From assembly GCA_031403195.1 (NCBI GenBank), contig JANNSZ010000033.1, forward strand, positions 68,525 to 132,524: DNA of 64,000 nt. The letters are read 5' to 3'. The position numbers and the translations under genes were made by a program. Positions within the stretch are counted from its first letter, which is position 1; every line of letters starts with the position of its first letter. Positions 6,325 through 27,700 of this stretch are shown in pieces. Below the pieces are notes generated by a model that searched no databases, was not told the origin of the DNA, and was given only the letters and a program-made list of their open reading frames with translations. This stretch comes from Planctomycetota bacterium (GTDB lineage: Bacteria; Planctomycetota; Planctomycetia; Pirellulales; UBA1268).

Positions 6325-6336
6325 GGACGCTTTCCG

Positions 6337-6594
6337 ATGGGCGACATGCAGCTCCTCGAGCTCGTGCGGCAGTGCCTGGTCACGGGTGGGTTCGCGCTCC
6401 TGCCGGTGCTCGCCGCAGGCTTCGCCGTCGCCGTCGTGGCGGGGCTCATGCAGGCGGCCACAGGAATTCATGAACCGGTGGTGGGGCTCGTGCCGCGTCT
6501 GGCCGCGATGGGGTTCGTTCTCCTTGTCACGCTGCCATGGATGGTCGAGCAGCTTGCGGAACTGTTCCGCGTGGCCGCGACAGGTTCCTCGTGA
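6337..6594 (+). CDS. fliQ: flagellar/T3SS export gate protein FliQ
   Basis: 85-aa two-TM protein 12 nt after fliP. It has FliQ-like length and pattern (LLPVLAAGFAVAVVAGLMQAATGIHEPVVGLVPRLAAM). Confidence 0.85.
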   Translation: MGDMQLLELVRQCLVTGGFALLPVLAAGFAVAVVAGLMQAATGIHEPVVGLVPRLAAMGFVLLVTLPWMVEQLAELFRVAATGSS

Positions 6595-6692
6595 GTCTTG
6601 AACAACAAATCCCGGTTGTGCCGTCGCTCCACGACGGCGTCATGCAGTGGATTGGTTGGACCACTCATTCAAACACGGATCGGTGGTGACCC

Positions 6693-10999: not shown

Positions 11000-12658
11000 T
11001 CATTCGTGACCGCAGCGGCCTGTGAGCAGATCGAAGGCGGCAATCGACGGAATCAGGAGTGCGAGCGTCGCGAAGCCGTAGGCAGCCATCACGACGAGGA
11101 ACACTTGGAGGGTGCTGCCCTGAAGGAAGCCGGTGATGGCCACGAAGGTCAGAGCGGGCAGGAGCGCCGAGGCCCAGCCCACGGCCGGCGACGGATTGCG
11201 GGCTGAGAGGGCCGCGTAGAGGCCCACGCCACCGCCGACGATCACGGCCAGGAACGGAGCGAGCTGGAGTTCGAAACTGCCGCCGAATGCGACCATGATC
11301 CGCATCGCGGTCGCCACGCCAAGAGACAAAAATGCCACGATACCGAGCGTCACGCTGATGGCTCGTCGTGACAGGGGATGCGATAGCCCGGCATAGACCC
11401 CGAGCACCGCCACGAAGAATGTCAAAAGCGCGAGGCCACCCACGAGGTAGGCCGCATCTTCGGCGGTGGCAAGCCCGAGCGGCACGAGCGCCACGCAGAC
11501 CGCAAGTGGGAGAATCACGACCTCACGCGCAGCCGCAATCACACCCAGAAGTTTGCCCCACACGAGCTCACGAGGATTGAGATCGCTGACGAGGAGGAGG
11601 TCGAGGGTTCCACGATCTCGTTCAGAGGTGACCGAGGTCACGGCAAGGGCCGCCACGGCCAAGAGGCTCGCGAGCACCATGGGCACGACAGCTGCCGCCA
11701 TGGCAAACCGATCAGGGCGGATGGCCCGCGCCTCTGACACAAGGCCCGCGACGGCGACGGCGAAGAGAGCGATCCATGCAAGCCGTACCACGATCATGGC
11801 ACGCCCGTGGGCGCGGGTTTGAACCTCCCGCCAGAGCACGGGGTTGGCCCACACATCACCGCGACGGCACGTGGCCCGCAAGGACCGGCGAGGCTGGGCC
11901 TCGGAGGCCGTGTTCCAACGGCGTACGAATCCCACGGCCAGTCCACTCGACAGCACACAGAGCGTCCCGCACAGAGCCAGGAACTTTCCGAGGCCTTGTC
12001 CGCCTGTGGGCGTGAGCGAGTCGAATGCTGCCCGCGCGGGTGAGACGATCCCACCGACGCCGGGGCCACCGATGGCAGCCGTGGTCTCGCCGGCAGCCAG
12101 CCACGCTACGAGGGCGGCCGCCGTTATGGCGACGGCTTGGAACGTGGTGTCCCGCCAGAATGCCGCCGCTGTAGCGATGCTCGCCGCCGTGGCTGCGGCT
12201 GCGGCTGTCACCATGAAGAGCCGTGCAAGCTGCACGCTGGTGATGCCTCCGAAGAGTGACACGAGGACGAACAAAGGCGCGGCCGCCAACAGCAGAAGAC
12301 CGATCCGAAGCAGACTGCCACCGAGCTTGCCGAGCACGAGCTGGGCATCACCGAGGCGGCTGACGAGGAGGAGCTCGAGTGTGCGTCGATCTTTTTCCAA
12401 GCCCACGGCCAGCACCGCTACGAGCGTCGCGGCGAGCATCGCCAGGGCCAGTTGAAGCGGCGCCAGGAGTCTCATCAGCGTGGCCCCGAACCGAGCCGCG
12501 TCACCGACGGTCGCGACCGCCTGGGAGCCTGTCACGACCAGCCACGACGTTGCCAGGAGCCCAAACAGGGTGGCGGCCGTCAACGCCCGGGCCACGTAGA
12601 GGCCTCGTGTGCGTGGGACAACGAGAATCTCCCGCTCAAAAACCGCACCCAGGATCAT
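11000..12658 (-). CDS. ABC-2-type transporter permease, internally duplicated (two fused permease halves)
   Basis: ATG at 12658 (MILGAVFEREILVV) lies inside ORF 11000..12856. About 12 TM segments. Two homologous halves each carry an E(K/R)DRxTL(E/D)LLLVS...GKL motif. Confidence 0.72.
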   Translation of the reverse strand: MILGAVFEREILVVPRTRGLYVARALTAATLFGLLATSWLVVTGSQAVATVGDAARFGATLMRLLAPLQLALAMLAATLVAVLAVGLEKDRRTLELLLVSRLGDAQLVLGKLGGSLLRIGLLLLAAAPLFVLVSLFGGITSVQLARLFMVTAAAAATAASIATAAAFWRDTTFQAVAITAAALVAWLAAGETTAAIGGPGVGGIVSPARAAFDSLTPTGGQGLGKFLALCGTLCVLSSGLAVGFVRRWNTASEAQPRRSLRATCRRGDVWANPVLWREVQTRAHGRAMIVVRLAWIALFAVAVAGLVSEARAIRPDRFAMAAAVVPMVLASLLAVAALAVTSVTSERDRGTLDLLLVSDLNPRELVWGKLLGVIAAAREVVILPLAVCVALVPLGLATAEDAAYLVGGLALLTFFVAVLGVYAGLSHPLSRRAISVTLGIVAFLSLGVATAMRIMVAFGGSFELQLAPFLAVIVGGGVGLYAALSARNPSPAVGWASALLPALTFVAITGFLQGSTLQVFLVVMAAYGFATLALLIPSIAAFDLLTGRCGHE

Positions 12659-12767
12659 CCCGCGGCACTCCGATGTCGGACGGTGGCAGCCATCTTCATG
12701 TGACGGTAGAGTACCAGGGATGATCAGTTTCCCGCTCTCGTTCCATCGACTTGGAGATCTGTACGCC

Positions 12768-14138
12768 ATGCGCATGTGTCCGCGCGCTCTCGAAATCCAC
12801 ACCCTGCTTGTTCTTTTCGTGGTCGCCGTCAGTCTCGGGCATGGCCAGGCCGCCATGGCTCAGGTGACCGCCAAGGCCTTGATCGGCAAGGCGGTGTCGG
12901 ACGACAGTCAGTATCAGGAGATCAATGGCGCGATCGAGCGATTCGGCAATCGCGATGTGGACGGCTGCCGCGCGATTCTCGAACGGGCTCGAAACAACAA
13001 CCCGAAGCTGCCGCCGCCGGGCGTGATGATGACGACGCTTTGGCTGAGCGCGAATCAATTGCCGGCGGCGCGGGCAGAGCTCGAGGAGACGGCTATCAAG
13101 TTCCCCAGTGATCCCGAGCCCTATCTCTTGCTCGGAGACCTCGCCTTCCAGGAGCGACGCATCACGGATGCGGCGGTCCTCTTTGATCGGGCAACGGAGC
13201 TTGCGGCCACCTTCACGGAAAACCCAAAGCGGAAGCGAGACTTCGAGATTCGCTGCAACGCGGGAACGGCAGCAGTTGCGGCAGCGCGTCGGCAGTGGGA
13301 GTCCGCCCACAAGCACCTCCTCGCATGGCTTGCCCTCGATCCAGACAACGCAGGAGCGCACTTCCGATTGGGTGGCATCCTCTTTCATCTTGGAAAAGAG
13401 TCCGAGGCGCTCGACGAGTTCAAGGAAGCTCGGAAGCTGGACGCCAAGGCCGCTCAGCCGGAACTCGCCTTGGCGGGGTTGTATGGTGAGGAACGCAAGC
13501 TGGATCTGGCCAAGAAGTGGATCGAGGCAGCGATCAAGGCTGCTCCGAAGGACCCGGAGGTTCTGCTTGCGTCGGCGCAGTGGTACCTCGGGCAAAACGA
13601 TCTCAAGATGGCCCAGAACGTCGCCGATCAAGCCCTGGCGATTGACCCGAAAAGCCTGGGTGGAAAGATCGTCAGAGGCGTCATTGCCCGCGTGGCCCGC
13701 GACTATGCCACGGCCGAGAAGTTCTTCAACGAAGCCCATGTTCAGTCGCCGGGCAATTTTGATGCGAGCAACTCGCTTGCCCTCGTGCTGATCGAGTCGC
13801 CTGACAAGGACGACAAGCAACGTGCCCTGGAGATGGCCGAGGCCAACCTCGCGAGGTACCGGGAGAACTCGCCGCAGAAGGTCAACGCGGTCACCACGTT
13901 GGCGTGGATCTATTACAAGCTCGATCGCCGCGATGACGCCGGCAAGCTCCTTGAAGAAGTCGCCCGAAACAACGCGCTGACGCCCGACGGCGCCTACTAC
14001 ATCGCGCAGCTCTTGGCCGACCGCGGAGAAAAGGACAAGGCCCGTTCGTTTCTCGAGGAACTACTGACCAAGGAGGCGGTCTTTGCCACGCGATCCGATG
14101 CCGTCGATCTCCTTGCGAAGCTCAAGGCAAAGCCGTGA
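12768..14138 (+). CDS. TPR-repeat secreted protein
   Basis: Internal ATG at 12768 gives the signal peptide MRMCPRALEIHTLLVLFVVAVSLGHGQAAMA. Multiple TPR-like repeats fill the rest of the ORF. Confidence 0.78.
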   Translation: MRMCPRALEIHTLLVLFVVAVSLGHGQAAMAQVTAKALIGKAVSDDSQYQEINGAIERFGNRDVDGCRAILERARNNNPKLPPPGVMMTTLWLSANQLPAARAELEETAIKFPSDPEPYLLLGDLAFQERRITDAAVLFDRATELAATFTENPKRKRDFEIRCNAGTAAVAAARRQWESAHKHLLAWLALDPDNAGAHFRLGGILFHLGKESEALDEFKEARKLDAKAAQPELALAGLYGEERKLDLAKKWIEAAIKAAPKDPEVLLASAQWYLGQNDLKMAQNVADQALAIDPKSLGGKIVRGVIARVARDYATAEKFFNEAHVQSPGNFDASNSLALVLIESPDKDDKQRALEMAEANLARYRENSPQKVNAVTTLAWIYYKLDRRDDAGKLLEEVARNNALTPDGAYYIAQLLADRGEKDKARSFLEELLTKEAVFATRSDAVDLLAKLKAKP

Positions 14139-14151
14139 GGCAGGGCCGGCG

Positions 14152-14613
14152 TCAACGCGATGCCGGTAGTGGAACGTCTTCTGGCTCAGGTGGCATCGGC
14201 ACGGCGTCAGCGGCGTCGATGACAGTCGGCTTTCCGCCTCGGGCAGACGGCGGCGAGGATATCGCAGGAGGAGCCTCCACCGCCGTCGGCATCGCGCGAA
14301 TCGTGATCGTGCGGGACGGACCTGCAGCGACGCCAGTTTCTGCGGCTGGGCGCATCGACATGCTTCGCCGCCGAGCCCGCAGCCGATCGCGGCGCAGTGG
14401 AATGCCCGGATACGCCTCCACGGGGACTTCGAGGCTCGGGAGGCCGACCCGGCTTCCATCCCCGAAGTATGTGAACATTTCAATGGCCGATGACTCGGCA
14501 GAGGCAAGGGTCGTGAGGGCAACGACCACGATGACCTTCCCGAATCTGACCGGAGCGAAGCGAGGCATGCGTGACTTCCGGAGGGGAGGCATCGCTAGCT
14601 GTCCGTGGACCAA
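14152..14613 (-). CDS. hypothetical secreted protein
   Basis: Signal-peptide-like MPRFAPVRFGKVIVVVALTTLASA. It competes with the opposite-strand ORF 14135..14833, which looks like an Arg/Ser-rich shadow frame. No family recognised. Confidence 0.4.
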   Translation of the reverse strand: MVHGQLAMPPLRKSRMPRFAPVRFGKVIVVVALTTLASAESSAIEMFTYFGDGSRVGLPSLEVPVEAYPGIPLRRDRLRARRRSMSMRPAAETGVAAGPSRTITIRAMPTAVEAPPAISSPPSARGGKPTVIDAADAVPMPPEPEDVPLPASR

Positions 14614-14805
14614 GCTACACAGGGCCTTGGTTCACTTGGCCGACCGATGGCGAAGCCTATGTTTGCCCTGGTCGGCGACCGCCGCATTGTGCAGCGCTAG
14701 GGATGCAAGCAGGAATTCTTCGGCGGATGGTCGGGCGTCCCGACAGTCAGTTGGCCCGATCCTGCCCATGCCGCAAAACCATCAGAGTCGGTTGAGGCGC
14801 TGGGC

Positions 14806-15744
14806 ATGCGGGCCATCCACGCAGGCGCCATGAACCCTCACTGGATAACCTTTGGCGCGGCGGTCGTCACGATGGCAGCGGCGTTGGCTGGCTGGTATCT
14901 CGTGCGCGGGTCCACGGCAGTCCCGGCAACCATGTGGGCAGCAGCGGCGGCGCTCGCCCTCGCCTACGAGGCGGCTGTCACGGCGACTGGCGGGCTCCAA
15001 GGGCAGGCTGCCGAGTCTTGTGCGAGGCTCGTGGTTGTGGCGTTTGGCGTCGGTCCGGCCATGTCCGTCCTGGGTGCCAAACGGCCGCAGCACGGAGTCT
15101 GGCAATTCATTGTCGCCGCGCTGGTAGGCGTGCTATCCATGCCGGCTGTGACAGCTGTTCTCGTGAGGCCTGGCAGCATGCCCGATCTGCACCTCCTCGA
15201 GCAATTGTTCTTGCCGCTTTTGGTCGCGATAGGCTTTCTCAACTTCATCGCCACGACGCGATTCGCCTCGGCCATCATGGTCGCAGGCGGACAGGTCGTG
15301 CTCATGTGGTCATTTCTGCCAATCGTCGGCGATGGCCAGCGACTGCCGACCACGGTGGAAGCCATCGGAGCGTGGGTCATGGCGGCTGGGGCCATCCTTG
15401 CGGCGCTCCAGGCCATGTGGTGGCCCGCCTCGGCCTGGGTGGCCCGCGGCGCATCCGGGGCGATTGACAGGCCACTCATCGCCCTCCGTGAGACGCTTGG
15501 TGCCGCGTGGACGCTCCGGGTGATTGAGCGATTCAACGCTGTCGCGGTCGAGCGAGGCTGGCCATGTCGCTTGCGATTTGCAGGGCTGGTGCTCACCCAG
15601 GATGCGCGGGACGGTCGGTGGGAGGCCGATGCGATTCGGTGCGTTCGATCGCTCTTGCGCCGGTTTGCATCGGCTGCATGGATCGAGCGCCACAGCGGCC
15701 AATCACCGATCCGTAGTCTCCTGGCTGACAAAACGGTAGACTGA
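14806..15744 (+). CDS. polytopic membrane protein, unknown function
   Basis: About 7-8 hydrophobic segments. Same strand and close spacing with the downstream genes. Confidence 0.6.
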   Translation: MRAIHAGAMNPHWITFGAAVVTMAAALAGWYLVRGSTAVPATMWAAAAALALAYEAAVTATGGLQGQAAESCARLVVVAFGVGPAMSVLGAKRPQHGVWQFIVAALVGVLSMPAVTAVLVRPGSMPDLHLLEQLFLPLLVAIGFLNFIATTRFASAIMVAGGQVVLMWSFLPIVGDGQRLPTTVEAIGAWVMAAGAILAALQAMWWPASAWVARGASGAIDRPLIALRETLGAAWTLRVIERFNAVAVERGWPCRLRFAGLVLTQDARDGRWEADAIRCVRSLLRRFASAAWIERHSGQSPIRSLLADKTVD

Positions 15745-15821: not shown

Positions 15822-16145
15822 ATGGCCGATGACCAGCCCGTACTCCCCCCGCCCGTTCAGGTTCCTGTTGACGAGTCGCACATCCTGGCCACGTACGCCA
15901 ACTTCTGCCGGGTAACGGGCACGCCGGAGGAGCTCATCGTCGACTTTGGCCTCAACAAGCAGGTGGGCGGAACGTCGCCCGAAACCATCCAGTTGACCCA
16001 GCGGATCATCGTCAATTTCTATACGGCCAAGCGACTGGCCTACGCGCTCGGCCACGCCGTAGCCCGGCACGAACAGGCGTTTGGCGCGTTGGAGATCGAT
16101 GTGCAGAAGCGGGCCGCCCAGTCTCAGGCTTCACGAGGACAATGA
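15822..16145 (+). CDS. DUF3467-like small protein
   Basis: ATG at 15822 is preceded by GGAG. ILATYANFCRVTGTPEELIVDFGLN...IIVNFYTAKRLAYAL resembles the DUF3467 family pattern (recognised from memory, not searched). Confidence 0.65.
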   Translation: MADDQPVLPPPVQVPVDESHILATYANFCRVTGTPEELIVDFGLNKQVGGTSPETIQLTQRIIVNFYTAKRLAYALGHAVARHEQAFGALEIDVQKRAAQSQASRGQ

Positions 16146-16204: not shown

Positions 16205-18298
16205 GTGGCCGCCATGAGCATCGACGAATCGCAGGAGGTCTACCGAGCGCAGGCATGGATTCATGCGATTGTCGATGAGGTCGCGTCGATGGCCCGTGGT
16301 GACATGGGCGAAGCGGCGTTCGCCAAGGCCATCCTCGAGCGGATCCTCCAATCGATGGAGGCTGTGGCGGGCATCGTCTGGCTGATCGATGAACGTGGCG
16401 CGACCGAAGCGGCCAGCCACCTCGGCCTCGAAACCGTCGGGTTCGGTGCTTCGAAAGAGTCTCAGGCAAAGAATCTCGCCCTGGTTCAGTCGCTCCTCGG
16501 CAACCCGGCTGGGCTGGTCGTGCCTGGCGGGGCGTCCATCTCCGGTCCCGATGGCCGTCCGCTCGCCGCGAATGAGACTCCCTTCACGGTGTTGGCGGTC
16601 CCCATTGATCGCGGCGGCACTCGCGCTGGCCTGATTGAGGTCTTCCAGCATCCACAGGACCAGCAGACCGAGCAGGGCTACCTGATGTTCCTGGCTCGGA
16701 TAGCGATGGTCGCTGGCGACTATCTCCAGCGGCGGCAGATGGCTGTCATCGACGTCCAGCAGGCGGCCCTCGCGCAGGTGGAGCGATTCAGTCGGGCGGT
16801 CCATGAGTCGCTTGATCCGGTAGCCACCGCCTTTACGCTGGCAAATGAGGCTCGGCGGATCATCGGGTGTGATCGTGTGGGCGTGCTCATCAAGCGACGT
16901 CGCACGCTGCGACTCGAGGCCGTCAGCGGCCAGGAGACGGTGGAGCGCCGCGCCAACGAGGTGCAGGCCATCGAGGAGCTCGCCCGCGTTGTCGCCCGCG
17001 CGGGTGAACCGCTCTGGCACCCCGATCCGACGCGGGAGTTGCCGCCTCAGATCGAGCAGGAGCTGGAGAACTACATCGACGAGTCCCATACCACGGCGAT
17101 GGCGATCATCCCGCTGGAGCGTCCTCGTCCCACGCCGGTGGTCAAGCCTGGTGGCGTCGACGCCGTGGCGGTGGCCAAGGCTGAAGCGCCGGTCGCGATC
17201 CCGCAGCCGATTGGTGTGCTCGTTGTCGAGTGGTTCTCGGCTGCCGCCATCGAACCAGCCCAGAAGGCCAGGGTCGAACTGGTGGCTGCCCATGGCCGGG
17301 TAGCAGTGGCAAACGCCCTCTCCCACACCGGGCTGCCTCTGTATCCGCTCATCAATCTCGTGGGGAAGTCGAGAGTGCTGACCAGCGGTCGCAATCTTCC
17401 TCGGACGGTGCTTGCCGTGGTCGCCCTTGTGGCGGCACTCGTGGCGCTCGTGTTCGTGCCGGCCGAGCTTCGCCTCGAGGGCAAGGGCACTCTCGAGCCG
17501 GTCCATCGCCGAGAAGTGTTTGCGGGCATTGACGGCGTGGTCGAGGCCATCGAGCCAGGGGTCGAGCATGGGGCGGTCGTCAAGGCTGGCCAGCCACTCG
17601 CCAGGCTTCGCAATACCGAGGTCGATGTCGCCATTACAGACGTGCTTGGCCGCAAGGCCGCCAGTGAGGAGCAACTCAGGTCGACGAGGCAATCGTTACT
17701 CGAGGACCAGGAGATTTCGGCGGACGAGCGGGTTCGGCTGGAGGGGCGGGCACGCCAGTTCGAGCGGGAGATCGAAAGCCTCGAAGAGCAACGGCAACTG
17801 TGGGAGGCGCGTCGGGCCGACCTCACGGTGTCGAGCCCGATCGACGGCGTGGTGGTGACGTGGCAGGTTCGTGATCGGCTTCTGCTCCGCCCTGTCGAAA
17901 AGGGTCAGGTGCTCATGAGCGTAGCCGACAAGACGGGGCCCTGGGAGCTCGAGATCAATATGCCTGACGACCGGCTGGGGCATGTCAATCGTGCGTATGC
18001 TGCGGCCCGCCAGGCCGGACGAGAGCTGGAGGTCGACTACATTCTCGCGACGGATCCGGGGACACGGCACCGCGGCATGGTCCACGAGATTCACGAGCAG
18101 GCGGAAGTGCGTGGCGACCACGGCAACACCGTGCTCGTACGGGTGACAGTCGATGCGGAGCGGCACGAGAAGGAGGCGCTGGGTGCGGGCGCGAGCGTGA
18201 CCGCGAGGATCGCCTGTGGGCAGCGATCGCTTGGGTATGTGTGGTTTCATGACGTGCTGGCGTTCATCCGCACGCAGATACTCTTCAGGCTTTGGTAG
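16205..18298 (+). CDS. tandem-GAF domain / membrane-fusion (HlyD-like) fusion protein
   Basis: About 370 aa of cytoplasmic GAF-like sequence (two repeats), then one TM (LPRTVLAVVALVAALVALVFV). Next come a lipoyl-like half (VFAGIDGVVEAIEPGVEHGAVVKAGQPLARL), a coiled coil, and SSPIDGVVVTW...EKGQVLMSVAD. Start is GTG 16205 or ATG 16214. Confidence 0.8.
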   Translation: MAAMSIDESQEVYRAQAWIHAIVDEVASMARGDMGEAAFAKAILERILQSMEAVAGIVWLIDERGATEAASHLGLETVGFGASKESQAKNLALVQSLLGNPAGLVVPGGASISGPDGRPLAANETPFTVLAVPIDRGGTRAGLIEVFQHPQDQQTEQGYLMFLARIAMVAGDYLQRRQMAVIDVQQAALAQVERFSRAVHESLDPVATAFTLANEARRIIGCDRVGVLIKRRRTLRLEAVSGQETVERRANEVQAIEELARVVARAGEPLWHPDPTRELPPQIEQELENYIDESHTTAMAIIPLERPRPTPVVKPGGVDAVAVAKAEAPVAIPQPIGVLVVEWFSAAAIEPAQKARVELVAAHGRVAVANALSHTGLPLYPLINLVGKSRVLTSGRNLPRTVLAVVALVAALVALVFVPAELRLEGKGTLEPVHRREVFAGIDGVVEAIEPGVEHGAVVKAGQPLARLRNTEVDVAITDVLGRKAASEEQLRSTRQSLLEDQEISADERVRLEGRARQFEREIESLEEQRQLWEARRADLTVSSPIDGVVVTWQVRDRLLLRPVEKGQVLMSVADKTGPWELEINMPDDRLGHVNRAYAAARQAGRELEVDYILATDPGTRHRGMVHEIHEQAEVRGDHGNTVLVRVTVDAERHEKEALGAGASVTARIACGQRSLGYVWFHDVLAFIRTQILFRLW

Positions 18299-18309
18299 GA
18301 GGCGGTTTG

Positions 18310-19251
18310 ATGATCCGTACGATCGTCGTGATCTGCCCAGCACTCGCTGGCCTCGTGTCACTCATGGTTGCTGCGGCAGCCGGGCAGGTCGCGCCGCCAC
18401 AGGCTGCCACCGAGCCGATCCTCGAGGGATGCCTCGTGTCGCTCATCGATGAAGTGAAGGTTCCGGCTCGCGAGCCGGGTGTGATAACCCGGCTCGCCGT
18501 GCGGCAGGGAGACGTCGTCAAGCGGGGAGACATCCTGGCCTGCATTGATGATGACCAGCCGCAGATGGAGAAGCGACGGGCCGACGCCGAGCACAAGCAG
18601 GCCGTTGCCAAGGCCGAGAGCGACGTGGATGTCCGTTATTCCGTGAAGGCCTACGATGTGGCCAAGGCAACGCACGAGAAGGCGGAGGAGGCGCACGACC
18701 GTGTCAGAGCCTCGGTCACTGAAGTGGAGCGGCGGCGGCTCAAGCTCGAATGGGAGAAGGCGGAGCTCCAGATCGAGCAGGCGAAGCTCGAGCGGCAACT
18801 CGCAACGCTGGCGGCCACGAGCAAGGAAGTCGAGCTCATGGCGGCCGACAAAGCGATTGAACGGCGGGTTATCCGGTCGCCTCTCGACGGTGAAGTCGAA
18901 GAGGTGATTCCCCACGAGGGAGAGTGGCTCCAGCCCGGCGAGCCACTGGCCCGGATCATCACGATTGACCGGCTCTATGTGGAGGGGTTCGTGGATGCGG
19001 CGCGGTTTGGGCCCGCGGCCCTCCGGAGCAGGCCGGTGACCGTGGAGGCGCGGCTCGACAATGGCCGTGTCGAGTCATTCGAGGGGGGAATCTTCAAGGT
19101 CAAGCACCGGGTCGAGGGAGGAAGCTATCGGGTCGTGGCCGAAGTGAAGAATCGTCAGGACGGCGGCGAATGGCTTCTTCGGCCTGGGCAGATCGTGCAG
19201 ATGATCGTCCACTCCAGTCGGCCACCGGTTCAGCCGGCCATCACGAACTAG
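18310..19251 (+). CDS. HlyD-family membrane-fusion protein
   Basis: ATG at 18310 lies 5 nt after AGGAGG. Signal/TM is MIRTIVVICPALAGLVSLMVAAAAG. MFP motifs are VPAREPGVITRLAVRQGDVVKRGDILACID, a long coiled coil, and IRSPLDGEVEEVIPHEGEWLQPGEPLARI. Confidence 0.82.
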   Translation: MIRTIVVICPALAGLVSLMVAAAAGQVAPPQAATEPILEGCLVSLIDEVKVPAREPGVITRLAVRQGDVVKRGDILACIDDDQPQMEKRRADAEHKQAVAKAESDVDVRYSVKAYDVAKATHEKAEEAHDRVRASVTEVERRRLKLEWEKAELQIEQAKLERQLATLAATSKEVELMAADKAIERRVIRSPLDGEVEEVIPHEGEWLQPGEPLARIITIDRLYVEGFVDAARFGPAALRSRPVTVEARLDNGRVESFEGGIFKVKHRVEGGSYRVVAEVKNRQDGGEWLLRPGQIVQMIVHSSRPPVQPAITN

Positions 19252-19269
19252 CGTCCTGGGGTCTGCGGC

Positions 19270-21501
19270 ATGTCTACCGCCGACGCCTTTCGATCCAGTA
19301 CCACACGGCCCGTCGGGCTGCGGAAACGTGGTGATCTTGTCGTCACCCGCCAGCTCTACCAGGGGCAGGCTTGGTATGTTGTCAAGGATCCGATATCCCT
19401 TCACTACTACCGTTTTAGGCCTGAGGAATATGCACTCCTCGAAAAGCTTGACGGCCGGGTGAGCCTCGAAGGGCTCAAGACCTGGTTCGAGGAGCGATTT
19501 CCGCCGCGCCGCATCACGCTCGATGAGGCAGCTCGATTCGTCGCCACACTCCACCGCTCAGGCCTCGTGATCGGCGACCGGCCGGGGCAGGGGCCGCAGC
19601 TCTTCGAGCTGCGGCGGCAGCGAAAATGGAAGGAGTGGGTGGCCTGGATGTCGAACATCATGGCCCTTCGCTTCCGCGGCCTCGATCCCGATTGGCTGCT
19701 CGAGCGACTGAAGCCCAGGTTTGGCTGGATCTTTTCGCCGGCGGCCATAGTGTGTGCGACGGCGTTTGCGCTCTCGGCGCTGCTGCTGGTCCTCGTCAAC
19801 TTCAGCGTCTTTCGCTCCAAGCTGCCCGAGTTCAATCAGTTCTTCGCCGCAGGAAATTGGCTCTACCTGGCCATCGCCTTGGCGATCACGAAGGTGATCC
19901 ATGAGTTCGGCCATGGTTTGTCGTGCAAATACTACGGCGGCGAATGCCATGAGATGGGCGTCATGCTGCTGGTGTTCACCCCGTGCCTGTACTGCGATGT
20001 TTCAGACAGCTGGATGCTCCCGAACAAGTGGCAGCGGGCTGCGATTGGAGCGGCGGGAATGTATGTCGAGGTGGTGCTGGCATCGATCGCGACGTACCTC
20101 TGGTGGAATTCACACCCCGGCATCTTCAACCAGCTCTGTCTCGACGTGATGTTCGTGTCGAGCGTGTCGACCATCCTGTTTAACGCGAATCCACTTCTTC
20201 GGTATGACGGGTACTACATTCTCTCCGACGTGCTCGAGATCCCGAACCTTCGCCAGAAGGCCTCCACGATTCTCAATCGCCTCATGTCGCGGTGGTGCCT
20301 CGGCATCAAGCAGCGCGACGATCCGTTTCTGCCGCAACGGAACCTCGGCTGGTTTGCCCTCTATGCGGTCGCATCGAGTATCTATATATGGTTCGTCACG
20401 GCCTCGATCTTTCTGTTCATGTGGAACGTGTTCAAGCCATACCGGCTTGAGGTCTTCGGGCGAATACTTGCCGCTGGCGCGATCTGGGGACTGGTCATCA
20501 GGCCGCTCCATGGGATGATCAAGTTTCTTAAGGTGCCCGGGAGGCGCGACGAAGTGAAAACAGCGAATGTGCTCGTGACGGGCCTCGTGGCAGCCGCGTT
20601 GGTGGCCGGTGTGGCTCTCATTCCTCTTCCCCAACGAGTACGGTGTCCAGCCGAGCTCCGGCCCCGGGGTGCCGAGACGGTGTATGTGTCCGTTGCCGGA
20701 CGCCTTGAGCAGCTTCTCGTCAAGCCAGACGCGATCGTTCGTAAGGGCGACGCGATTGCGGTGCTGTCAAGCCCCGAGCTCGATCTCGAGATTGCTGAGC
20801 TTCAGGGGAGGCAGACGCAGGCGGAGTCTCGGCTCGACAGCCTCCGACGGGAACGATTTGCCGACCCATCGGCCGCGCTCGAGATCGGCACGGTGGAGGA
20901 AACACTCGAGAGTGTCCTGGAGCAGCTTGCCCGGCGACGGCGTGATCGTGATGAGCTCGTGCTCCGGGCGCCGCGAGACGGCGTGGTCCTGCCGGCGGCC
21001 CGCGTGCCACCGCAGCCCGATTCAGCCGGCCGACTTCCGGGCTGGTCGGGGAACCCGCTTGGAGAGCGGAACCTCGGCGCGACGTTTGTGGCTGGTACGG
21101 TCGTGTGTCTGGTCGGAGACGCCGAGCGATTCGAGGCTGCCATGGTGGTCGATCAGACGGACCTCGAATTCGTGAAGCGAGGCCAGCGGGTGGATCTCAA
21201 GCTCGATGCATTATCCGATCACACGTACTCAGGTGAGATTGCGGAACTGGCAGAGGCGAATCTCGAGTCGGGCTCCGAGCGGCTCAGTGGCAAGGCCGGG
21301 GGGGGTGTCCCCACGGAGACCGACGAGAGTGGCCGCGAACGGCCGATTTCGACAAGCTACGAAGCCCTGATGACGCTCGATGACCCCGACAGGGTTTTCA
21401 CGCCCGGCATGCGGGGCACCGCTCGCATCGAGGTGGGGAGCCGTACGGTCGGCCAGTGGCTCCTGCGGCTCGTGTGGCAGACCTTCAACTTCAGGATGTA
21501 G
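19270..21501 (+). CDS. M50/site-2-protease-like zinc metalloprotease fused to a C-terminal HlyD-like membrane-fusion domain
   Basis: HEFGH lies at nt 19900-19914. The second S2P motif FNANPLLRYDGYYILSD is present, with multiple TMs. The C-terminal MFP region has VSVAGRLEQLLVKPDAIVRKGDAIAVLSS, a coiled coil, and LRAPRDGVVLPA. The N-terminal ~100 aa are PqqD-like. Confidence 0.85.
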   Translation: MSTADAFRSSTTRPVGLRKRGDLVVTRQLYQGQAWYVVKDPISLHYYRFRPEEYALLEKLDGRVSLEGLKTWFEERFPPRRITLDEAARFVATLHRSGLVIGDRPGQGPQLFELRRQRKWKEWVAWMSNIMALRFRGLDPDWLLERLKPRFGWIFSPAAIVCATAFALSALLLVLVNFSVFRSKLPEFNQFFAAGNWLYLAIALAITKVIHEFGHGLSCKYYGGECHEMGVMLLVFTPCLYCDVSDSWMLPNKWQRAAIGAAGMYVEVVLASIATYLWWNSHPGIFNQLCLDVMFVSSVSTILFNANPLLRYDGYYILSDVLEIPNLRQKASTILNRLMSRWCLGIKQRDDPFLPQRNLGWFALYAVASSIYIWFVTASIFLFMWNVFKPYRLEVFGRILAAGAIWGLVIRPLHGMIKFLKVPGRRDEVKTANVLVTGLVAAALVAGVALIPLPQRVRCPAELRPRGAETVYVSVAGRLEQLLVKPDAIVRKGDAIAVLSSPELDLEIAELQGRQTQAESRLDSLRRERFADPSAALEIGTVEETLESVLEQLARRRRDRDELVLRAPRDGVVLPAARVPPQPDSAGRLPGWSGNPLGERNLGATFVAGTVVCLVGDAERFEAAMVVDQTDLEFVKRGQRVDLKLDALSDHTYSGEIAELAEANLESGSERLSGKAGGGVPTETDESGRERPISTSYEALMTLDDPDRVFTPGMRGTARIEVGSRTVGQWLLRLVWQTFNFRM

Positions 21502-21513
21502 GCGAACCGCCGC

Positions 21514-22440
21514 ATGCTGTCGCTCGAACGGATCACGATTTATCCGATCAAGAGCCTCGACGGCCTCGTCGTAGACGAGGCTCATGTGCTGCCTGCTGGA
21601 GGTCTCGCCAACGATCGCCGGTGGCAGCTCGTTGACATGGAGGGCAGGGTGGTCAATGGCAAGCGGATGCCGCTGCTCCATGCAATCCGGTCTGCCTACT
21701 CGATCGAGGGCCTCGCGGCCGACGCGGAGGTCTGGCCGGTAGCCATGAGCAACGCGGTGCGCCTCACCATCGATCCGCCGGCGGTGGCAGCGAGCGCCGT
21801 TCCAGGTGTCGAACGGATGGCCGGCCTTCGTTCCGCGATCTTTCCGCTCGTGGCCGGGAGGGACGGGCCGTGTGAGTGGCTGTCGGAGGCGCTTGGTGTC
21901 GATGTCCTCCTCGTGGAGCGGCGAGACGGAGGGTTTCCCGACGATCGTGACGCCGCAGGACCGACACTGGCCGCAACGGCCACGCTTGTGGAAGTGGCGA
22001 GGTGGTTCCGGATCGACCTCGAAGAGTGCCGTCGGCGGTTTCGCGTGAACCTCGAGATCGGTGGAGGCGATCCCTTCTGGGAGGACACGCTCGCATGCCC
22101 GATCCGGCGGGAGTTGTGCCCCCCACTGACGCAGGACACGGCCGAGCTGCCGGCCGATCCCTACGCGGACCTGCCCCCGCCCGAGCCCAGAGTGGTGACA
22201 ATCGGTGGGGTGAGCCTGCGAGTGACGAATGTCTGTCGCCGCTGCGTGGTCCCGAGCCGCGACAGTCGCACCGGCAGGGTCACAGAACACTTTCGCGATG
22301 TGTTCGAATCGTATCGGCAGCGCACCATCCGTGATGACGTGGATGCCACATCGTGGAGCCACTGGTACCGTCTCGCTCTCAACACGGTGGCCTTCGAGGC
22401 TGGGGCCATCACGTGTGGTGACCCGGTGCGGCCAGGGTGA
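21514..22440 (+). CDS. MOSC domain protein (with MOSC N-terminal beta-barrel)
   Basis: N-terminus ITIYPIKSLDGLVVDEAHVLPAGGLANDRRWQLVD. Conserved Cys region VTNVCRRCVVPSRDSRTG. Starts 12 nt after the previous stop. Confidence 0.85.
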   Translation: MLSLERITIYPIKSLDGLVVDEAHVLPAGGLANDRRWQLVDMEGRVVNGKRMPLLHAIRSAYSIEGLAADAEVWPVAMSNAVRLTIDPPAVAASAVPGVERMAGLRSAIFPLVAGRDGPCEWLSEALGVDVLLVERRDGGFPDDRDAAGPTLAATATLVEVARWFRIDLEECRRRFRVNLEIGGGDPFWEDTLACPIRRELCPPLTQDTAELPADPYADLPPPEPRVVTIGGVSLRVTNVCRRCVVPSRDSRTGRVTEHFRDVFESYRQRTIRDDVDATSWSHWYRLALNTVAFEAGAITCGDPVRPG

Positions 22441-22453
22441 CCGTCGCCGCCGA

Positions 22454-24655
22454 TCAGGGCGGCACGGTGACGATGACGCCCGTGGTGTTCGTTACGTCGG
22501 CTGCCACGGTGCCAGGGATGGTCGCCGGCGGCGGGGCAGGGTTCGCGACGAGGAAGCTCTCGCTGATATCGAAGAATCCTGTCGATGTGCCATTGAGGAC
22601 GATGGCGTTGTTCGTGCCAGAGTTTACTGCCGACTCGAGCGAAGTGAGTTGGATATTGAGCGTGGCATCGTCGTTAGACTGGAAGGCGGGGAGCAAGGTG
22701 TTCAGGGAGGACAGCCGGCTCGTGCCCTCGATCGTCACGATCGATGCTGCATCATTGGATATGGAGACGAAGGCCTCATTGGTAGCACCCGTCACTCGCA
22801 GATTCGTGAACGTGATTTGGCCGTTTACGTTGCTCGAGACGAGGGCACCGAAATCCCCGGGGGTGATGAGCCTCGCCTGGCCGATGTTCACGACCGTGTC
22901 CGTCGTGGTTGCGATGGTAATCGGTGCGTTGAACTGCGAGTCCGAGTCGACAATCCCGTATGACACGAAGAACCGGCCGTCGCGTGCCACGGGTGTAAGC
23001 ATCGAATTCGTCGTGCGGTTGACGTTGATCGTGCCTCCAGTCGTGAGTTCGACAAGAACGCTCGGGTTGGGAGAGTTCGTGTTCGAGATGAGCCCTTGGA
23101 AGTTGACGTCGCCCGCACCATTGGTGACGAGCAGGCCGCTGTCCATGTTTTGGACAACCATGTTGAAGAAATTGACCTCGGCACCGAGGTTCATTGTGTC
23201 CAAGTCAAGCCCCGCATCGCCAGCCACACTTGTCCCCACAATCTCCACGTCGTTGACATTGGCCGCGGTGTTCAGGCTCGCGTTGGCCGCGATGCCCACC
23301 GGAGCGCCTTCGATCCGGAAGTGGTCGACGACAGCACCGTCCCGTAGCTCGATGGCCGTCGAGCCCGAGTTCAGCAAGGGCCGAAGAGCGCCACTGCCAG
23401 CGAAATAGCTCTGATATCCATCCGCCAGGGTATTGAGTTCGAGGGACGATCCCTCGCCGATGAGGAGTTGATTGTCGGCCTGGAACTGCCAGGTGGAATC
23501 GTAGGGGACTGTGGCACTGTTGCCAGCGTGAACAAACACGATGTCGTAGGGGGCAAGGGCTAGATTCTGCGCGAGGGCCAGTGTCCGCACGGGTGCCTCA
23601 GCCGTGCCCGTACCACCCACCTGCGCGGTGTCGTCTACGTGGATCACATTCCACGCCAAGCTCGTGACCGGATTGATCGCGACGACCGGGGTCTGGTGGG
23701 CACGGACAATATGCTCGTTCCGCATCATGGGCTGCTCGACCTGGTCGGGGACGTTCCGCCGGCGGCTGCCGCCCATGCGGTACGTGAGTCTCGCGTACCC
23801 GGTCCAGTCGAAGTAGCTGTCGTTGTTCGCCTGGAGCGAGAAGTCCCAGTTCTCGATAAACGTCATGTCGAGGCGGGTGTAGACACCGCCGAACCATGGC
23901 ACGACATCCTCGCCAACGTCCGAGCCTTCAGCCCACGTATATCCCGAGTTGCCGAGGGCGTAACCACCCACACTGACCATACCGCCCCAATCGGCGAGGC
24001 CTGGGATGTACGCGCCGACCTCAAGGTCGGCGCCACCGAGAGCCGCGTCGAGCCCGTTCAGCGAAAGGATGAAATTCTGTGTGAAGGGGGCGCCTGGAGA
24101 TCCAATCGTGTAGGCCGTCGAGCCCACGGGAATGTAGCCGTTGCTCCGGAGATTGCCGAAGTCGGTGAGCCACTCGCCCGAGATTCCCACCTGGTTATAG
24201 GTATGGCCGAACTGGCCGAACTCGTCCGTCCCCGGCACGCCCGCCGTGGGATACTGATTCATGTCGCCGTCGTAGTCCCAGTAGACGCCCACCCCGAAAA
24301 GGGTGCCACCGATGAATTGCTTGCGGATCGCGCCCACGTTCGAGAAGAATCCGCCATACTCCGAGAGATGGCCTCGCACATCAGCCGCCCAGAGACCTCC
24401 CAGGTCATCCTCGGCGTAGGGAAAGAACCCGCCGAGGGTCATGTACGAGCCGTTGTAGCCCAAGCCTCGGTCGGCTGGGTTGACCCCGTAGTAAAACCAG
24501 CCCGGGCCAGTGCCCCGAAAAATACCGAGTGGTGTGGCTGCCTGATTGATCAGGCCAGCCGCGGGCTGTCCGACCTGGGCCTCGGCGATCGACGCGGCAC
24601 CGGCGGCCATGACAGCCACCAGCGTCAGCATCACGGTTCGCATTGTCGCTCGCAT
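22454..24655 (-). CDS. inverse autotransporter (intimin/invasin-type N-terminal beta-barrel) with parallel beta-helix passenger
   Basis: Signal peptide MRTVMLTLVAVMAAGAASIAEA. Barrel-like region is LGGFFPYAEDDLGGLWAADVRGHLSEYGGFFSNVG...YNQVGISGEWLTDFGNLRSNGYIPVG...DFSLQANNDSYFDWTGYARLTYRMG. A linker follows, then ~22-aa beta-helix-like repeats. Confidence 0.78.
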   Translation of the reverse strand: MRATMRTVMLTLVAVMAAGAASIAEAQVGQPAAGLINQAATPLGIFRGTGPGWFYYGVNPADRGLGYNGSYMTLGGFFPYAEDDLGGLWAADVRGHLSEYGGFFSNVGAIRKQFIGGTLFGVGVYWDYDGDMNQYPTAGVPGTDEFGQFGHTYNQVGISGEWLTDFGNLRSNGYIPVGSTAYTIGSPGAPFTQNFILSLNGLDAALGGADLEVGAYIPGLADWGGMVSVGGYALGNSGYTWAEGSDVGEDVVPWFGGVYTRLDMTFIENWDFSLQANNDSYFDWTGYARLTYRMGGSRRRNVPDQVEQPMMRNEHIVRAHQTPVVAINPVTSLAWNVIHVDDTAQVGGTGTAEAPVRTLALAQNLALAPYDIVFVHAGNSATVPYDSTWQFQADNQLLIGEGSSLELNTLADGYQSYFAGSGALRPLLNSGSTAIELRDGAVVDHFRIEGAPVGIAANASLNTAANVNDVEIVGTSVAGDAGLDLDTMNLGAEVNFFNMVVQNMDSGLLVTNGAGDVNFQGLISNTNSPNPSVLVELTTGGTINVNRTTNSMLTPVARDGRFFVSYGIVDSDSQFNAPITIATTTDTVVNIGQARLITPGDFGALVSSNVNGQITFTNLRVTGATNEAFVSISNDAASIVTIEGTSRLSSLNTLLPAFQSNDDATLNIQLTSLESAVNSGTNNAIVLNGTSTGFFDISESFLVANPAPPPATIPGTVAADVTNTTGVIVTVPP

Positions 24656-24755: not shown

Positions 24756-27700
24756 TCAGGGAATCGGTGGAATCGGCGGTGGCGGTGGTGGAAGTGGCAC
24801 GACCGTGGCAGCTGCGAAGTTCACGCTCTCTGGCTCTTGCAGGATGTCGACAACCGCATTGAAATTGAGGTTCTCGAGTGTGACCTCGTTTGCAGTGGCG
24901 ACCGTGATCGGTCGGTTGAGTGCGGGGGTAAATGGCGGCAGCGGAGCTGGCCACAAGGTGGTGTCGCCACCCGTGGCGAGCAGAATATCGGTGTCGAGGC
25001 CCCCTTGCACCTGATTGCCTTCGATCCGTGCAAAGACGCGAGACAACGGTCGGCCAGGGAACCCAAGGGTCTGGTCGAAGACCGCATTGACATTGATACC
25101 GGGGCCCTGAGTCGAGGCGATGTTGTTCGTAAGTGCCGTGAAATTGATGGTTGGAGCGGGCCCAATAGGGCCGTTCGGCGGAGGATTCAGCAGGTCTGGC
25201 GCTGCCTCGATAGAAATGCCGAACGCCACCGCACCAATCGTCGTGTCGGAAACCAATACCTGGTACGCATTGGGCGGTCCGATGCTGTCTGCCACGGCAC
25301 GGATTCCGTAGAGCCCGGAGTTGCTGATGGCTGTCCGCCTACTTTGGGGATCGCTCGCATCGAGCCGTTCCACCCGTAGGTTGCTGTTCAAGGTGAGGAT
25401 GCCACCGCCGCTGGTTGCCGAGATGGTTGAGCCTCGGACGGCGACCACGCTGTCGACGGCACCAGACACTCCGACGGCTCGTATGCCTGCGCCGACCGCT
25501 GTCTGAATGGTCGAGTCTTGCACGAGAATCGACCCGCCGTCCGTGAAGATACCATCGGCGCCGGTGTCACTAATGATCGACTCGCCCAAGACGAAAAGCT
25601 CGGCGTCGGCATCGAGCACGTCGATGCCATTCAGCGTGGTCCTTCTCAGCGTCGAGCCATTGACCATCTGAACAACGGCATCCGGGGCGTCTATCACGAT
25701 GCCTGTGCCAGCGACGTCTGCGATGTCCGTGTTGTCGAGTATGACAGTGGCCCCCGTGCCCGTGACGGATACGGCAGGGTTCCCGGTGTCTGTAATCGTC
25801 GAGGCGGTCGCGGTTACAACCGAATCGGTTCCGGATGCGACAATACCCTGACCTGTCATCGTGGTGATGGTCGTTGCGTTGATATCCACCCTCGCGCGGT
25901 CGCCCGATGCCACGATGGCATCGCCGTCGATCCCGCGTGTGTCTGTGATGGTGCTGGCACTGACAGTAATCACCGAATCATCGCCCGACGCGGCGACTGC
26001 CGTGCCGTCGATGCGCGTGAATGTCGTCGAAGCGACCGAAATCGTCGCGGCCGGGCCGGCTGCCGACACGCCGACGCCGTCCACGTCTGTCAAAGTCGAG
26101 TTGGTGATGACCACGTCACCGCCGGCTGCGGAAACTACGAAGCCGTCATTGCCGAGGTTCGAAAGCCGCACATCGTTGAACCGAAACTCTCCAGTGGAAT
26201 TGGCGATTTCGACGCCCCGCTCGAATGGACCGTTCGCGCCTCGGATGATGACGTCGTTGATGATCGCAACCCCTGGCGATGAGAAGCCAGCGCCATCCGA
26301 GATACCGACGCTCGAGTTGACGATGTCGAAGTGATCGACCCTCGTGCCAGGCTGGTCCACGTTGATCGCGGCCCCGACCGGATTGGTGATCACCGGATAG
26401 AGGTCTGGTCTGTTCGACGCGTTGAGAGAGAGTTCGCCGCATTCAACGGTCTGGATCAGGAAGCTCGTGCCCTCACCCAAGAGAGACTGGTTTACATTCC
26501 CGAATGAGTAGCCCGCGACCGGCGTGGCATAGGGAGTGGTCTGGCTGTTGCCAACGTTGACATAGACGATGTCCCAGGCATTGAGCGCGGCCGCCTCGGC
26601 CTCGGCGAGTGTCTGAAAAGGGGCGTTCGCCGTGCCGTTGCCGCCCGCCGCCGCCGAGTTGTCAACGTGGAACATCTGCCAAGGGAGGGCATTGCCCGCG
26701 GCATCCAAATTGTTTGGGTTCAGTGCGACCACGGGCGCCTGGTGGGCGCGAACGATGTGCTCGTTTCGCATCATCGGCTGCTCAACTTGATCGGGCACAT
26801 TCCGCCGCCGGCTGCCACCCATGCGGTAGGTGAGGCGGGCAAACCCTGTCCAGTCGAAGTAGCTGTCGTTGTTGGCCTGGAGCGAGAAGTCCCAGTTCTC
26901 AACGAACGTCATATCGAGCCTGGTGTAGACACCACCAAACCAGGGCACAGCGGGCCCCTGACCGGGAAACTCGTACCGCGCGTTGCCAAAGGCATAGCCG
27001 CCGACGTTCACCATGCCGGCCCAATCTGCGAGGCCTGGGATGTAGGCACCGACCTCGAGATCCGCACCGCCAAGGGCTGCATTGATGCCGTTGTCGCAGA
27101 GAATCGAGTTGCCGACGAATGGGCCCATGATCTGGCCCGTGGAGCCGACCGGGATGTAGCCATTGCTTCGCAGGTTGCCGAAGTCGGTGAGCCATTCGCC
27201 AGAGATTCCGACCTGGTTGTATGTCTGGCCGCCTTCAAACAGGATTGGCCCCGACGTATCGGCGATCACCGTATCGTCGTACTGGTTCAGGTCGCCGTCG
27301 TAGTCCCAGTAGACGCCGAAACCGAGAAGCGTACCCCCGATGAATTGCTTCCGAACCGCACCGACGTTCGAGAAGAAGCCGCCATACTCGGAAAGATGCC
27401 CGCGGACGTCGGCCGCCCAGAGGCCACCAAGGTCATCGTCAGCGGTCGGGATGAATCCCCCGAGGGTCATGTAGCTGCCGCGGTACCCGAAGCCACGGTC
27501 GGCTGCGTTGGCACCGTAATAGAGGACGCCCGGCCCGTTGTCGCTGAGGCCTCGAAGGCCATTGACGGCACGGCCAACGACGCCCCCTGAAGGTGCCATG
27601 GCAGTTTGCCCTACCTGCGCGTAGCCCTGCGATGCCGGAGCAAACGCAAAGACAGCCGCCGCAAGTCCGAGGGTCACCGCTCGCCTAGCCCGCCGACTCA

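Follow-up and report, generated by a model that had tools for sequence, protein, structure and literature searches.

A planctomycete operon for three membrane-fusion proteins, one of them carrying a putative PqqD-like domain and an M50 protease: probable core of an exporter of LEPR-tagged large proteins

A 64-kb stretch of the genome of a Planctomycetota bacterium (contig JANNSZ010000033.1, positions 68,525 to 132,524, forward strand; hereafter the window, whose own positions serve as coordinates) contains at 16205-21501 three consecutive genes for membrane-fusion proteins, here called A, B and C in their order. The locus is a genuine and intact system. Together with a small DUF3467 protein encoded just upstream, A, B and C probably form the core, situated in the inner membrane and periplasm, of a dedicated exporter, which would resemble type I secretion, work without an ATP-binding cassette (ABC) transporter and handle large proteins tagged with a LEPR motif. 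It is gene neighbourhood only that points to this cargo. On the best reading of the data the window holds no more than the core, and the motor, the outer-membrane channel and the cargo are encoded outside it.

The three genes lie on the plus strand and are separated by gaps of 11 nt and 18 nt, in agreement with what the first-pass annotation of this DNA had read from the open reading frames (ORFs). The PxDG strings quoted there were all found in the ORF translations, and profile hidden Markov models backed each of the domain types that it had named (membrane-fusion, GAF and M50). It had overlooked that C starts with a putative PqqD-like domain and that DUF3467 is part of the module.

Protein C (19270-21501, plus strand, 743 amino acids [aa]) was assigned from Pfam, an AlphaFold2 (AF2) model and Foldseek as a putative PqqD-like RiPP recognition element (RRE; RiPP, peptide made by the ribosome and then modified post-translationally) followed by a polytopic M50 metalloprotease and a membrane-fusion domain. 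Pfam Peptidase_M50 was matched with 30.6 bits against a cutoff of 27.2, and HlyD_D23 and HlyD_3 were matched as well. Both catalytic motifs are intact, as had been claimed: the zinc-binding motif HEFGH (residues 211-215) is located exactly at 19900-19914, and NANPLLRYDG, the second M50 motif with the third zinc ligand (residues 305-314), at 20182-20211, both on the plus strand. In an alignment with 34 homologues of 35-51% identity, residues H211, E212, H215, N305, N307, P308, D313 and G314 were invariant. The AF2 model of C has a mean predicted local distance difference test score (pLDDT) of 85.1, and its helical M50 core was modelled at high confidence. A predicted transmembrane (TM) segment (residues 434-452) precedes the adaptor part, a predicted periplasmic membrane-fusion domain with lipoyl-like, alpha-hairpin and beta-barrel elements (residues ~452-743, 20623-21498, plus strand), which was recognized by HlyD_D23, HlyD_3 and Foldseek. 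This C-terminal third of the model resembles MacA, MexA, ZneB, AcrA and EmrA with E values of ~7e-15 to 7e-10 among the 50 Foldseek matches listed for the whole model. All 50 are adaptors, so that this search bore on the adaptor part and on neither the RRE nor the M50 part.

The putative PqqD-like RRE of C, predicted to be cytoplasmic, covers residues ~17-100 (19318-19569, plus strand) and was recognized from the AF2 model and a family profile. In the model the N-terminal ~100 residues form beta strands followed by three helices (pLDDT 84-92). A profile made from the N-termini of 31 C-family members had as its best PDB sequence matches the lasso-peptide RRE TfuB1 (E=0.0059) and PqqD 3G2B (E=0.0099). 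Pfam PqqD was matched at E<=10 by 23 of these 31 N-termini (best 1.1e-7), and in the Methylosinus and Pseudosulfitobacter orthologues of C the match was above the Pfam cutoff; the PGAP label for homologues of C is 'PqqD family peptide modification chaperone'. Among curated families, RiPP leader proteases come closest to the first 420 residues of C: the daptide HExxH protease family NF041824 was matched over residues 23-420 with E=1.3e-58 (198.9 bits, under the 300-bit cutoff), and NF058609 (YydH/LiaK) with E=1.4e-13. Taken together, the evidence on the three parts suggests that in C a putative peptide-recognition domain is joined to an intramembrane protease and to a periplasmic adaptor.

Protein A (16205-18298, plus strand, 697 aa) consists of a GAF-like region, a TM segment and a membrane-fusion part, as judged from Pfam, TM prediction and hhalign. 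Pfam GAF was matched at residues 205-304 with 30.5 bits (cutoff 22.4), and the preceding GAF-like repeat (residues 37-171) was weakly detected in a subsequence search (GAF_2, E=1.2e-3). The single TM segment that the first-pass annotation had attributed to A was predicted at residues 402-420 (17408-17464), ahead of the adaptor part; the tandem GAF-like region is predicted to be cytoplasmic and the membrane-fusion part (residues ~437-690; Biotin_lipoyl_2 31.8 bits, HlyD_3 39.3 bits) periplasmic. When A was compared with A-like proteins of Proteobacteria by hhalign, a probability of 100% and E=3.8e-42 were obtained over 584 columns that included the GAF region, and the A-like protein of Methylosinus scored 52 bits on Pfam GAF. 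Searches of PDB sequences with A and with C by phmmer gave nothing useful.

Protein B (18310-19251, plus strand, 313 aa) is a plain membrane-fusion protein. The ORF list places its start at a TTG codon at 18292, and the gene start was taken as 18310. B matched HlyD_3, HlyD_D23 and Biotin_lipoyl_2, and its score with TIGR01730 (RND_mfp) was 101.7 bits against a cutoff of 94.9; the hydrophobic N-terminal segment (residues 5-23) is a predicted signal or anchor. Thus in A, B and C alike a predicted membrane anchor stands ahead of the adaptor part, and the features of membrane-fusion proteins (lipoyl-like barrel-sandwich, alpha-hairpin and beta-barrel) were matched by the profiles of all three and by the model of C.

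No ABC, resistance-nodulation-division (RND), TolC or SecA-like gene was found anywhere in the 64 kb of the window, which was searched for similarity with E. coli SecA, a planctomycete SecA-like protein and TolC as well as for ORFs that combine Walker A with an ABC signature. The first-pass claim that there is no pump, outer-membrane partner or substrate was therefore correct for the whole window. It did not hold for the system, of which related loci carry SecA-like genes, TolC or other barrels, and LEPR giants (see below). A classical ABC or RND pump was found beside the orthologues at none of the related loci. An ABC-2 type permease encoded at 11000-12856 (minus strand) was considered as a hidden pump and rejected: it is syntenic in close relatives only and no ATPase gene lies beside it.

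The family of C is large, with 14,127 representative clusters at E<=1e-3 and 4,531 at E<=1e-30, and the best 150 matches are mostly full-length (~740 aa). The 80 best genome loci for C, all from Planctomycetota, are referred to by labels of the form L001, and their conserved neighbours were clustered using ORFs of at least 60 aa. Among the 53 loci with at least 3.5 kb of sequence upstream of C, both A and B were present in 45, B only in three and neither in five. A SecA-like gene was adjacent in 10 of the 80 loci. Its product combines SecA_DEAD, SecA_PP_bind and P-loop_SecA in ~640-690 aa (~675 aa in these planctomycete loci), has no scaffold or wing, and stays below the SecA equivalog cutoffs (for example, 678 vs 814 bits). 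Across the 80 loci no ABC, RND or OEP family was conserved, and neither was a sigma/anti-sigma pair or any other regulator. A cognate ABC, RND or MFS transporter is likewise missing both from the window and from the set of conserved neighbours.

The DUF3467 protein (15822-16145, plus strand, ~107 aa; Pfam DUF3467, 66.6 bits) is listed with a TTG start at 15792, but its start methionine is kept in homologues and its core is very highly conserved. It adjoins A-B-C in 20 of the 80 planctomycete loci and in four proteobacterial ones. Judged from sequence, it is a conserved further component of the module and a small cytoplasmic protein. A role as a SecB-like chaperone was considered and found to be unsupported, though not disproved: the AF2 model is weak (pLDDT 61), and the best Foldseek match in the PDB had E=0.14, with no SecB among the matches.

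Evidence for the nature of the cargo came from Proteobacteria, where loci were found by tblastn of C against plasmids and chromids and 12 replicons were examined. The window genes were matched to these loci (C, E=7e-72; DUF3467, 4.5e-10; B, 6.7e-10). At nine of the 12 loci (Methylosinus, Pseudosulfitobacter, Thalassospira, Cupriavidus metallidurans CH34, Azospirillum, Ensifer, Tistrella, Burkholderia anthina and Rhizobium johnstonii) a giant ORF with a LEPR motif was found within 5 kb of the module and on the same strand; in Tistrella it lies 4.4 kb downstream of C. The giants are ~3,300-12,700 aa long, and SecA-like and/or TolC genes are usually located alongside. TolC occurs in these loci, yet no ABC exporter does. 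At a tenth locus, in Rhodobacteraceae M382, a giant ORF lies upstream and its N-terminus was not reached.

Every giant whose N-terminus was reached begins with a basic stretch and a LEPR motif and lacks a hydrophobic signal peptide. Among the sequences read were ...VEPIEPRILLSADP, ...DTLEPRVLLNADV, ...ETFEPRVLLSADL, ...ETLEPRYLLSADI, ...ESLEPRLLLSADF, LALEPRLLYDAA, MALEPRFMFDAA, LALEPRVVYDAS and ALEPRMMFDAA. The cutoff of NF012209 ('LEPR-XLL domain', 17 bits) was reached by five giants, with 26.7-34.9 bits in four and 17.1 bits in that of CH34, and in the remaining four of the nine the LEPR motif was read directly.

Two arrangements were distinguished. In the first, found in Methylosinus sp. 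C49, Pseudosulfitobacter, Thalassospira marina and R. johnstonii (giants of ~8,850, 12,740, 4,030 and 10,100 aa, respectively), the giant gene is followed directly by DUF3467 and then by the module genes, for an A-like GAF adaptor, C, usually a SecA-like protein, a B-like adaptor and, at two of these four loci, TolC, in varying order. Ensifer adhaerens has the same layout with no DUF3467 detected. The second arrangement, in Azospirillum (L090), B. anthina (L096) and CH34 (L089), has no SecA-like gene, DUF3467 or GAF and adjoins a giant of the DUF4347 type (~3,300-3,950 aa). In Azospirillum and B. anthina the genes are annotated in the order giant, TolC, B-like adaptor, HlyD and C-like protein. 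In this arrangement the LEPR motif is nearer to the N-terminus, at residue 3 in Azospirillum and at ~30-45 in B. anthina and CH34.

Two entries in the annotation of these loci are erroneous. The SecA-like gene of Methylosinus sp. C49 plasmid pMSC49a (L081:11192-13108, WP_244635385.1) is named 'prepilin peptidase', although its product scores 596 bits with the SecA model. The annotated start of the 10,000-aa Ig-like protein of R. johnstonii pRlX3 (L100:15826, WP_326913003.1) is ~100 codons too far downstream, which removes the LEPR-XLL motif (IIFESLEPRLLLSADF).

Proteins with a similar motif were found in Planctomycetota. At no fewer than eight planctomycete loci, genes lying no more than 10 kb from C encode proteins 800-2,100 aa long that have a basic N-terminus, a LE[D/S/T/P/E]RxLL motif and no hydrophobic signal peptide. 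Their domains are of extracellular type (subtilase, cadherin-like, Big_9, GEVED, dockerin, CBM60 and P-domain). These LExRxLL proteins were enriched where a SecA-like gene is clustered with the module (4/10 vs 3/70 loci, Fisher p=0.004), which is weak evidence, since several of the loci share ancestry and are not phylogenetically independent. In the window's own clade, the L003 locus, whose C is 75% identical, encodes directly after the MOSC gene a 2,129-aa LESRQLLA protein (L003:4488-10874, plus strand) with a basic N-terminus and a proprotein-convertase P-domain, and the window has a 14-bp junction at that place.

The planctomycete loci vary in their gene content. A fully clustered version (L016, L025, L036, L062 and L068) has a BBP7 barrel gene on the minus strand and then SecA-like, A, B, C and DUF3467 genes; one or two LExRxLL-motif proteins come next in four of the five, and a second BBP7 barrel is present in three of the five. 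The BBP7 barrels are candidates for the outer-membrane partner. Variant loci differ in the genes adjacent to C upstream (L028, L046, L061 and L065) or downstream (L015, L044, L067 and L073). In some of them C occurs without A or B and with a gene for a DUF481 outer-membrane barrel directly upstream; in others the gene directly downstream of C codes for a 1,230-aa AsmA/DUF748-like protein. Several genomes have two paralogous copies of the module on different contigs (L014/L039, L042/L063, L037/L043 and L012/L051).

The first-pass annotation knew of no characterised system of this kind. It is correct that none has been characterised experimentally, but the triad itself has been described. In a comparative-genomic search for secondary SecA proteins (Kamneva, Poudel & Ward 2015, PLoS One, PMC4452313) a conserved locus was reported that encodes GAF+HlyD, HlyD and Peptidase_M50+HlyD proteins alongside a SecA_DEAD protein that is truncated and, in some cases, an OEP protein, in phyla that include Chlorobi. 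The secondary SecA_DEAD was proposed to replace the ABC ATPase in a type-I-secretion-like locus, the components of which can be encoded elsewhere in the genome, and the biological role was called 'completely unknown'. The same three protein types (GAF+HlyD/Biotin_lipoyl, HlyD/Biotin_lipoyl and Peptidase_M50+HlyD) are encoded together in the window, whereas a SecA_DEAD gene is missing from its 64 kb. The paper does not mention DUF3467, a PqqD/RRE domain or LEPR-motif cargo. We found in the literature no later paper characterising this locus, and none that ties LEPR, DUF3467 or DUF4347 to the module. The module of the window is thus a member of a family that was described computationally before and is experimentally untouched.

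Comparison with known export systems showed both shared and distinct elements. Like classical type I secretion systems (T1SS; HlyBD-TolC, LapBCE), the proteobacterial loci have membrane-fusion adaptors, TolC and a giant repetitive extracellular protein encoded beside the apparatus. The module differs in that it lacks an ABC transporter, has three unlike adaptors (two of them joined to cytoplasmic or membrane parts) and includes a SecA-like motor as well as an intramembrane metalloprotease, and its putative signal (LEPR) is N-terminal, in contrast to the C-terminal secretion signal of T1SS. With PCAT/NHLP bacteriocin export it would share the principle of leader recognition and a leader protease fused to export machinery, and an HlyD-family partner. 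However, matches to TIGR03794 were weak and far under the cutoff, and PCAT/NHLP systems rely on a cysteine protease of the C39 type and on an ABC engine, whereas the module has a PqqD-like RRE, an M50 protease and a SecA-like ATPase in trans. Truncated SecA domains have been reported on giant proteins of Omnitrophota (West-Roberts et al. 2023, preprint), with no link to an M50/adaptor module. These and accessory SecA2 proteins resemble the SecA paralogue considered here in that the DEAD motor and the preprotein-binding domain are kept, scaffold and wing are absent and there is an association with the export of very large proteins; here, in diderm bacteria, it is a separate ~650-aa protein clustered with the M50/adaptor genes, and it is absent from the window. 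A 2026 preprint describes giant proteins of Chlorochromatium with LEPRxLL N-termini and without known transport signals, together with one horizontally acquired secA, and likewise makes no link to an M50/adaptor module.

How such an exporter might work can be outlined tentatively. In the most far-reaching version, to which we would give somewhat less than an even chance, the RRE-M50-adaptor fusion would recognise and remove the LEPR leader, and a truncated SecA together with DUF3467 would drive export, N-terminus first, through a tunnel made of three adaptors to TolC or a different outer-membrane channel; this would be a widespread type of secretion, not recognised before and distinct from T1SS. 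In the reading that we consider probable, the cargo would be large extracellular proteins that lack a Sec signal and begin with a basic N-terminus followed by hExLEPRxLL[S/A]. The cytoplasmic PqqD-like RRE of C may dock this motif, by analogy with the docking of RiPP leaders by RREs, and the M50 domain of C, with its invariant catalytic residues, may cleave the leader at the membrane. As suggested by its domain content and co-localisation, the truncated SecA paralogue, which in this genome would have to be encoded outside the window, could supply ATP-driven pushing. DUF3467 might, speculatively, be a small cytosolic adaptor or chaperone, and the tandem GAF region of A might act as a gate or docking point on the cytoplasmic side. 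In the periplasm, the corresponding parts of A, B and C, adaptors by fold, would assemble into a tunnel leading to an outer-membrane channel. In Proteobacteria this would be TolC; for Planctomycetota, BBP7 or DUF481 barrels are speculative candidates. Any assignment of the inner-membrane pore would be speculation.

Several points weigh against an exporter of LEPR-tagged proteins. All functional links rest on gene neighbourhood. In this genome cargo and motor are assumed and not seen: the window has no LExRxLL ORF, SecA-like gene or TolC, and the pattern [LIFVM]E.R.[LMVIF][LMF][SAT] had no match in any of its frames. The N-terminus of the window's own C gave no Pfam PqqD match (E<=1), so that for this copy the RRE is read from the family profile and the AF2 topology only. 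In the SecA-less proteobacterial arrangement PqqD was not detectable in the C-like protein, and the source of energy is left unexplained. There was no LEPR protein at the loci of Magnetospirillum pMSR-1 and Phyllobacterium (two of the 12). Most planctomycete LExRxLL variants fell below the NF012209 threshold; their equivalence with LEPR-XLL proteins is by motif only, and outside the SecA-containing loci their proximity to C, taken without a genome-wide background rate, could be due to chance. A DUF3467 profile run against PDB sequences and Foldseek gave nothing significant, which makes the fold search uninformative. Finally, we know of no M50 protease that acts as a protein-conducting channel.

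Among the alternatives, the one that fares best, although we consider it unlikely, is a RiPP-like pathway: a short ribosomal peptide would dock with its leader on the RRE, lose that leader to the M50 domain and leave by way of the three adaptors, a scheme that has been put forward for EpeP/YydH and for the daptide protease. It draws on the matches to NF041824 and NF058609 and on the RRE evidence (see above), and also on a review according to which EpeP is thought both to cleave and to export its peptide. C has in common with the daptide HExxH and YydH/EpeP/LiaK enzymes the N-terminal domain and the HExxH/NPxxxxDG polytopic core, but these enzymes carry no fused adaptor, and C, with its score below the NF041824 cutoff, is related to that family and not a member of it. 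The neighbours of the module are giant proteins and not RiPP tailoring genes: in the 80 loci no tailoring enzyme was conserved and, among ORFs of at least 60 aa, no small ORF except DUF3467, whose conservation extends across the entire folded core, as would not be expected of a precursor peptide. The partners that are conserved are a SecA-like ATPase with a preprotein-binding domain and the giant LEPR proteins.

Improbable, too, is transport of a non-protein substrate (lipid, glycan or small molecule), with the giants being neighbours for some other reason, for example because their anchoring needs the exported material. Membrane-fusion proteins do serve many substrate classes, and AsmA/DUF748-like and outer-membrane barrel genes adjoin C in some planctomycete loci; yet a peptide-recognition domain, a peptidase and a SecA paralogue with a preprotein-binding domain all indicate a polypeptide.

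Less probable again is signalling by regulated intramembrane proteolysis, in which GAF would sense a cytoplasmic ligand, M50 would cleave a membrane-tethered regulator and the adaptors would be scaffold only. The intact M50 core, the GAF match above the Pfam cutoff and the absence of a transporter from the window agree with this possibility, and the first-pass annotation had proposed something close to it, a ligand-sensing scaffold built around the protease. That proposal was not borne out: a putative RRE and a protease, together with three adaptors and a SecA-like motor, look more like a cargo-recognising exporter, and no sigma/anti-sigma pair or other regulator is conserved alongside in the 80 loci. 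Site-2 proteases such as RseP and SpoIVFB have the same M50 motifs in a polytopic membrane core, but C lacks PDZ or CBS domains, has a putative RRE in place of the PDZ domain, has no anti-sigma substrate context and is fused to a periplasmic adaptor. Its C-terminal part has a genuine adaptor fold, and in Proteobacteria TolC and SecA-like genes are co-localised with it. As for the idea that the genes are what decay or rearrangement has left of an ordinary ABC/RND efflux or T1SS operon, to which the lack of a pump in the window might point, this explanation is effectively refuted, because the architecture is intact and the catalytic residues are invariant across thousands of sequence clusters in several phyla, and no conserved locus has an ABC or RND partner.

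The genes flanking the operon are those described in the first-pass annotation. Upstream of DUF3467, a 312-aa protein with six predicted TM segments and no family match (14806-15744, plus strand) is conserved in the close clade only (L001, L002, L004, L006 and L017); it is possibly a clade-specific accessory, of uncertain membership. The MOSC_N/MOSC protein (21514-22440, plus strand; MOSC_N, 54.1 bits), encoded 12 nt downstream of C, adjoins the module only in L001-L005 and L007 and is probably merely a clade-specific passenger of the operon. None of six proteins searched had a PADLOC anti-phage defence match. Scans for small ORFs, promoters and terminators revealed no convincing precursor gene, promoter or terminator around the operon: at 13.8-23 kb no sigma-70-like promoter was found, and the only two terminator-like matches (19899-19916 and 20157-20171) are both within gene C, one of them being the palindromic coding sequence of HEFGH.

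The minus strand further downstream encodes a paralogous pair of secreted proteins, one of 733 aa (22454-24655) and one of 1007 aa (24756-27779). They have classical signal peptides, a common N-terminal region (..YYG.N.ADRG.GY.GSYMTLGGF..) and Pro-rich C-termini, and the 1007-aa protein has right-handed beta-helix repeats; the pair stays beside the operon in the close clade (L001-L003, L005, L007 and L029). They were considered as outer-membrane partners and no support was found, given the classical signal peptides and C-termini that are not barrel-like. In front of the 312-aa gene, a 232-aa ORF rich in Arg, Ser and Gly (14135-14833, plus strand) appears to be non-coding. It is overlapped by a 153-aa ORF (14152-14613, minus strand) with a signal-peptide-like start, for which a related contig has a 148-aa counterpart at the same place. 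Flagellar export genes (FliF-like, FliP and FliR; 3396-7475, plus strand) and a sulfotransferase gene (8199-9359, minus strand) showed no evident link to the module.

What is added here to the earlier description of the locus is the putative RRE in C, the membership of DUF3467, the conservation counts and the adjacency to LEPR giants; the link between LEPR and the module was not found in the searchable literature. Genes of the C family are at present named inconsistently ('HlyD family', 'biotin/lipoyl-binding', 'PqqD family' or 'M50 peptidase'), and with more than 4,500 clusters at 50% identity in the family, a functional assignment would annotate thousands of genes. Some of the largest proteins known from bacteria are of the LEPR-XLL kind, those of the Chlorochromatium symbiosis having 20,000-37,000 aa and, according to the 2026 preprint, still being without any known transport signal. 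The value of the locus is that, followed outward, it gives a concrete and testable hypothesis for the secretion of the LEPR-motif giants. If the hypothesis is true, a SecA-type motor coupled to a TolC-type conduit would be a new route across the diderm envelope, with cargo selection (RRE and leader protease) borrowed from RiPP biosynthesis. It would explain how the LEPR-XLL giants leave the cell, and it would provide a handle on the display of adhesins, enzymes and effectors in Planctomycetota, rhizobia, Cupriavidus and phototrophic consortia.

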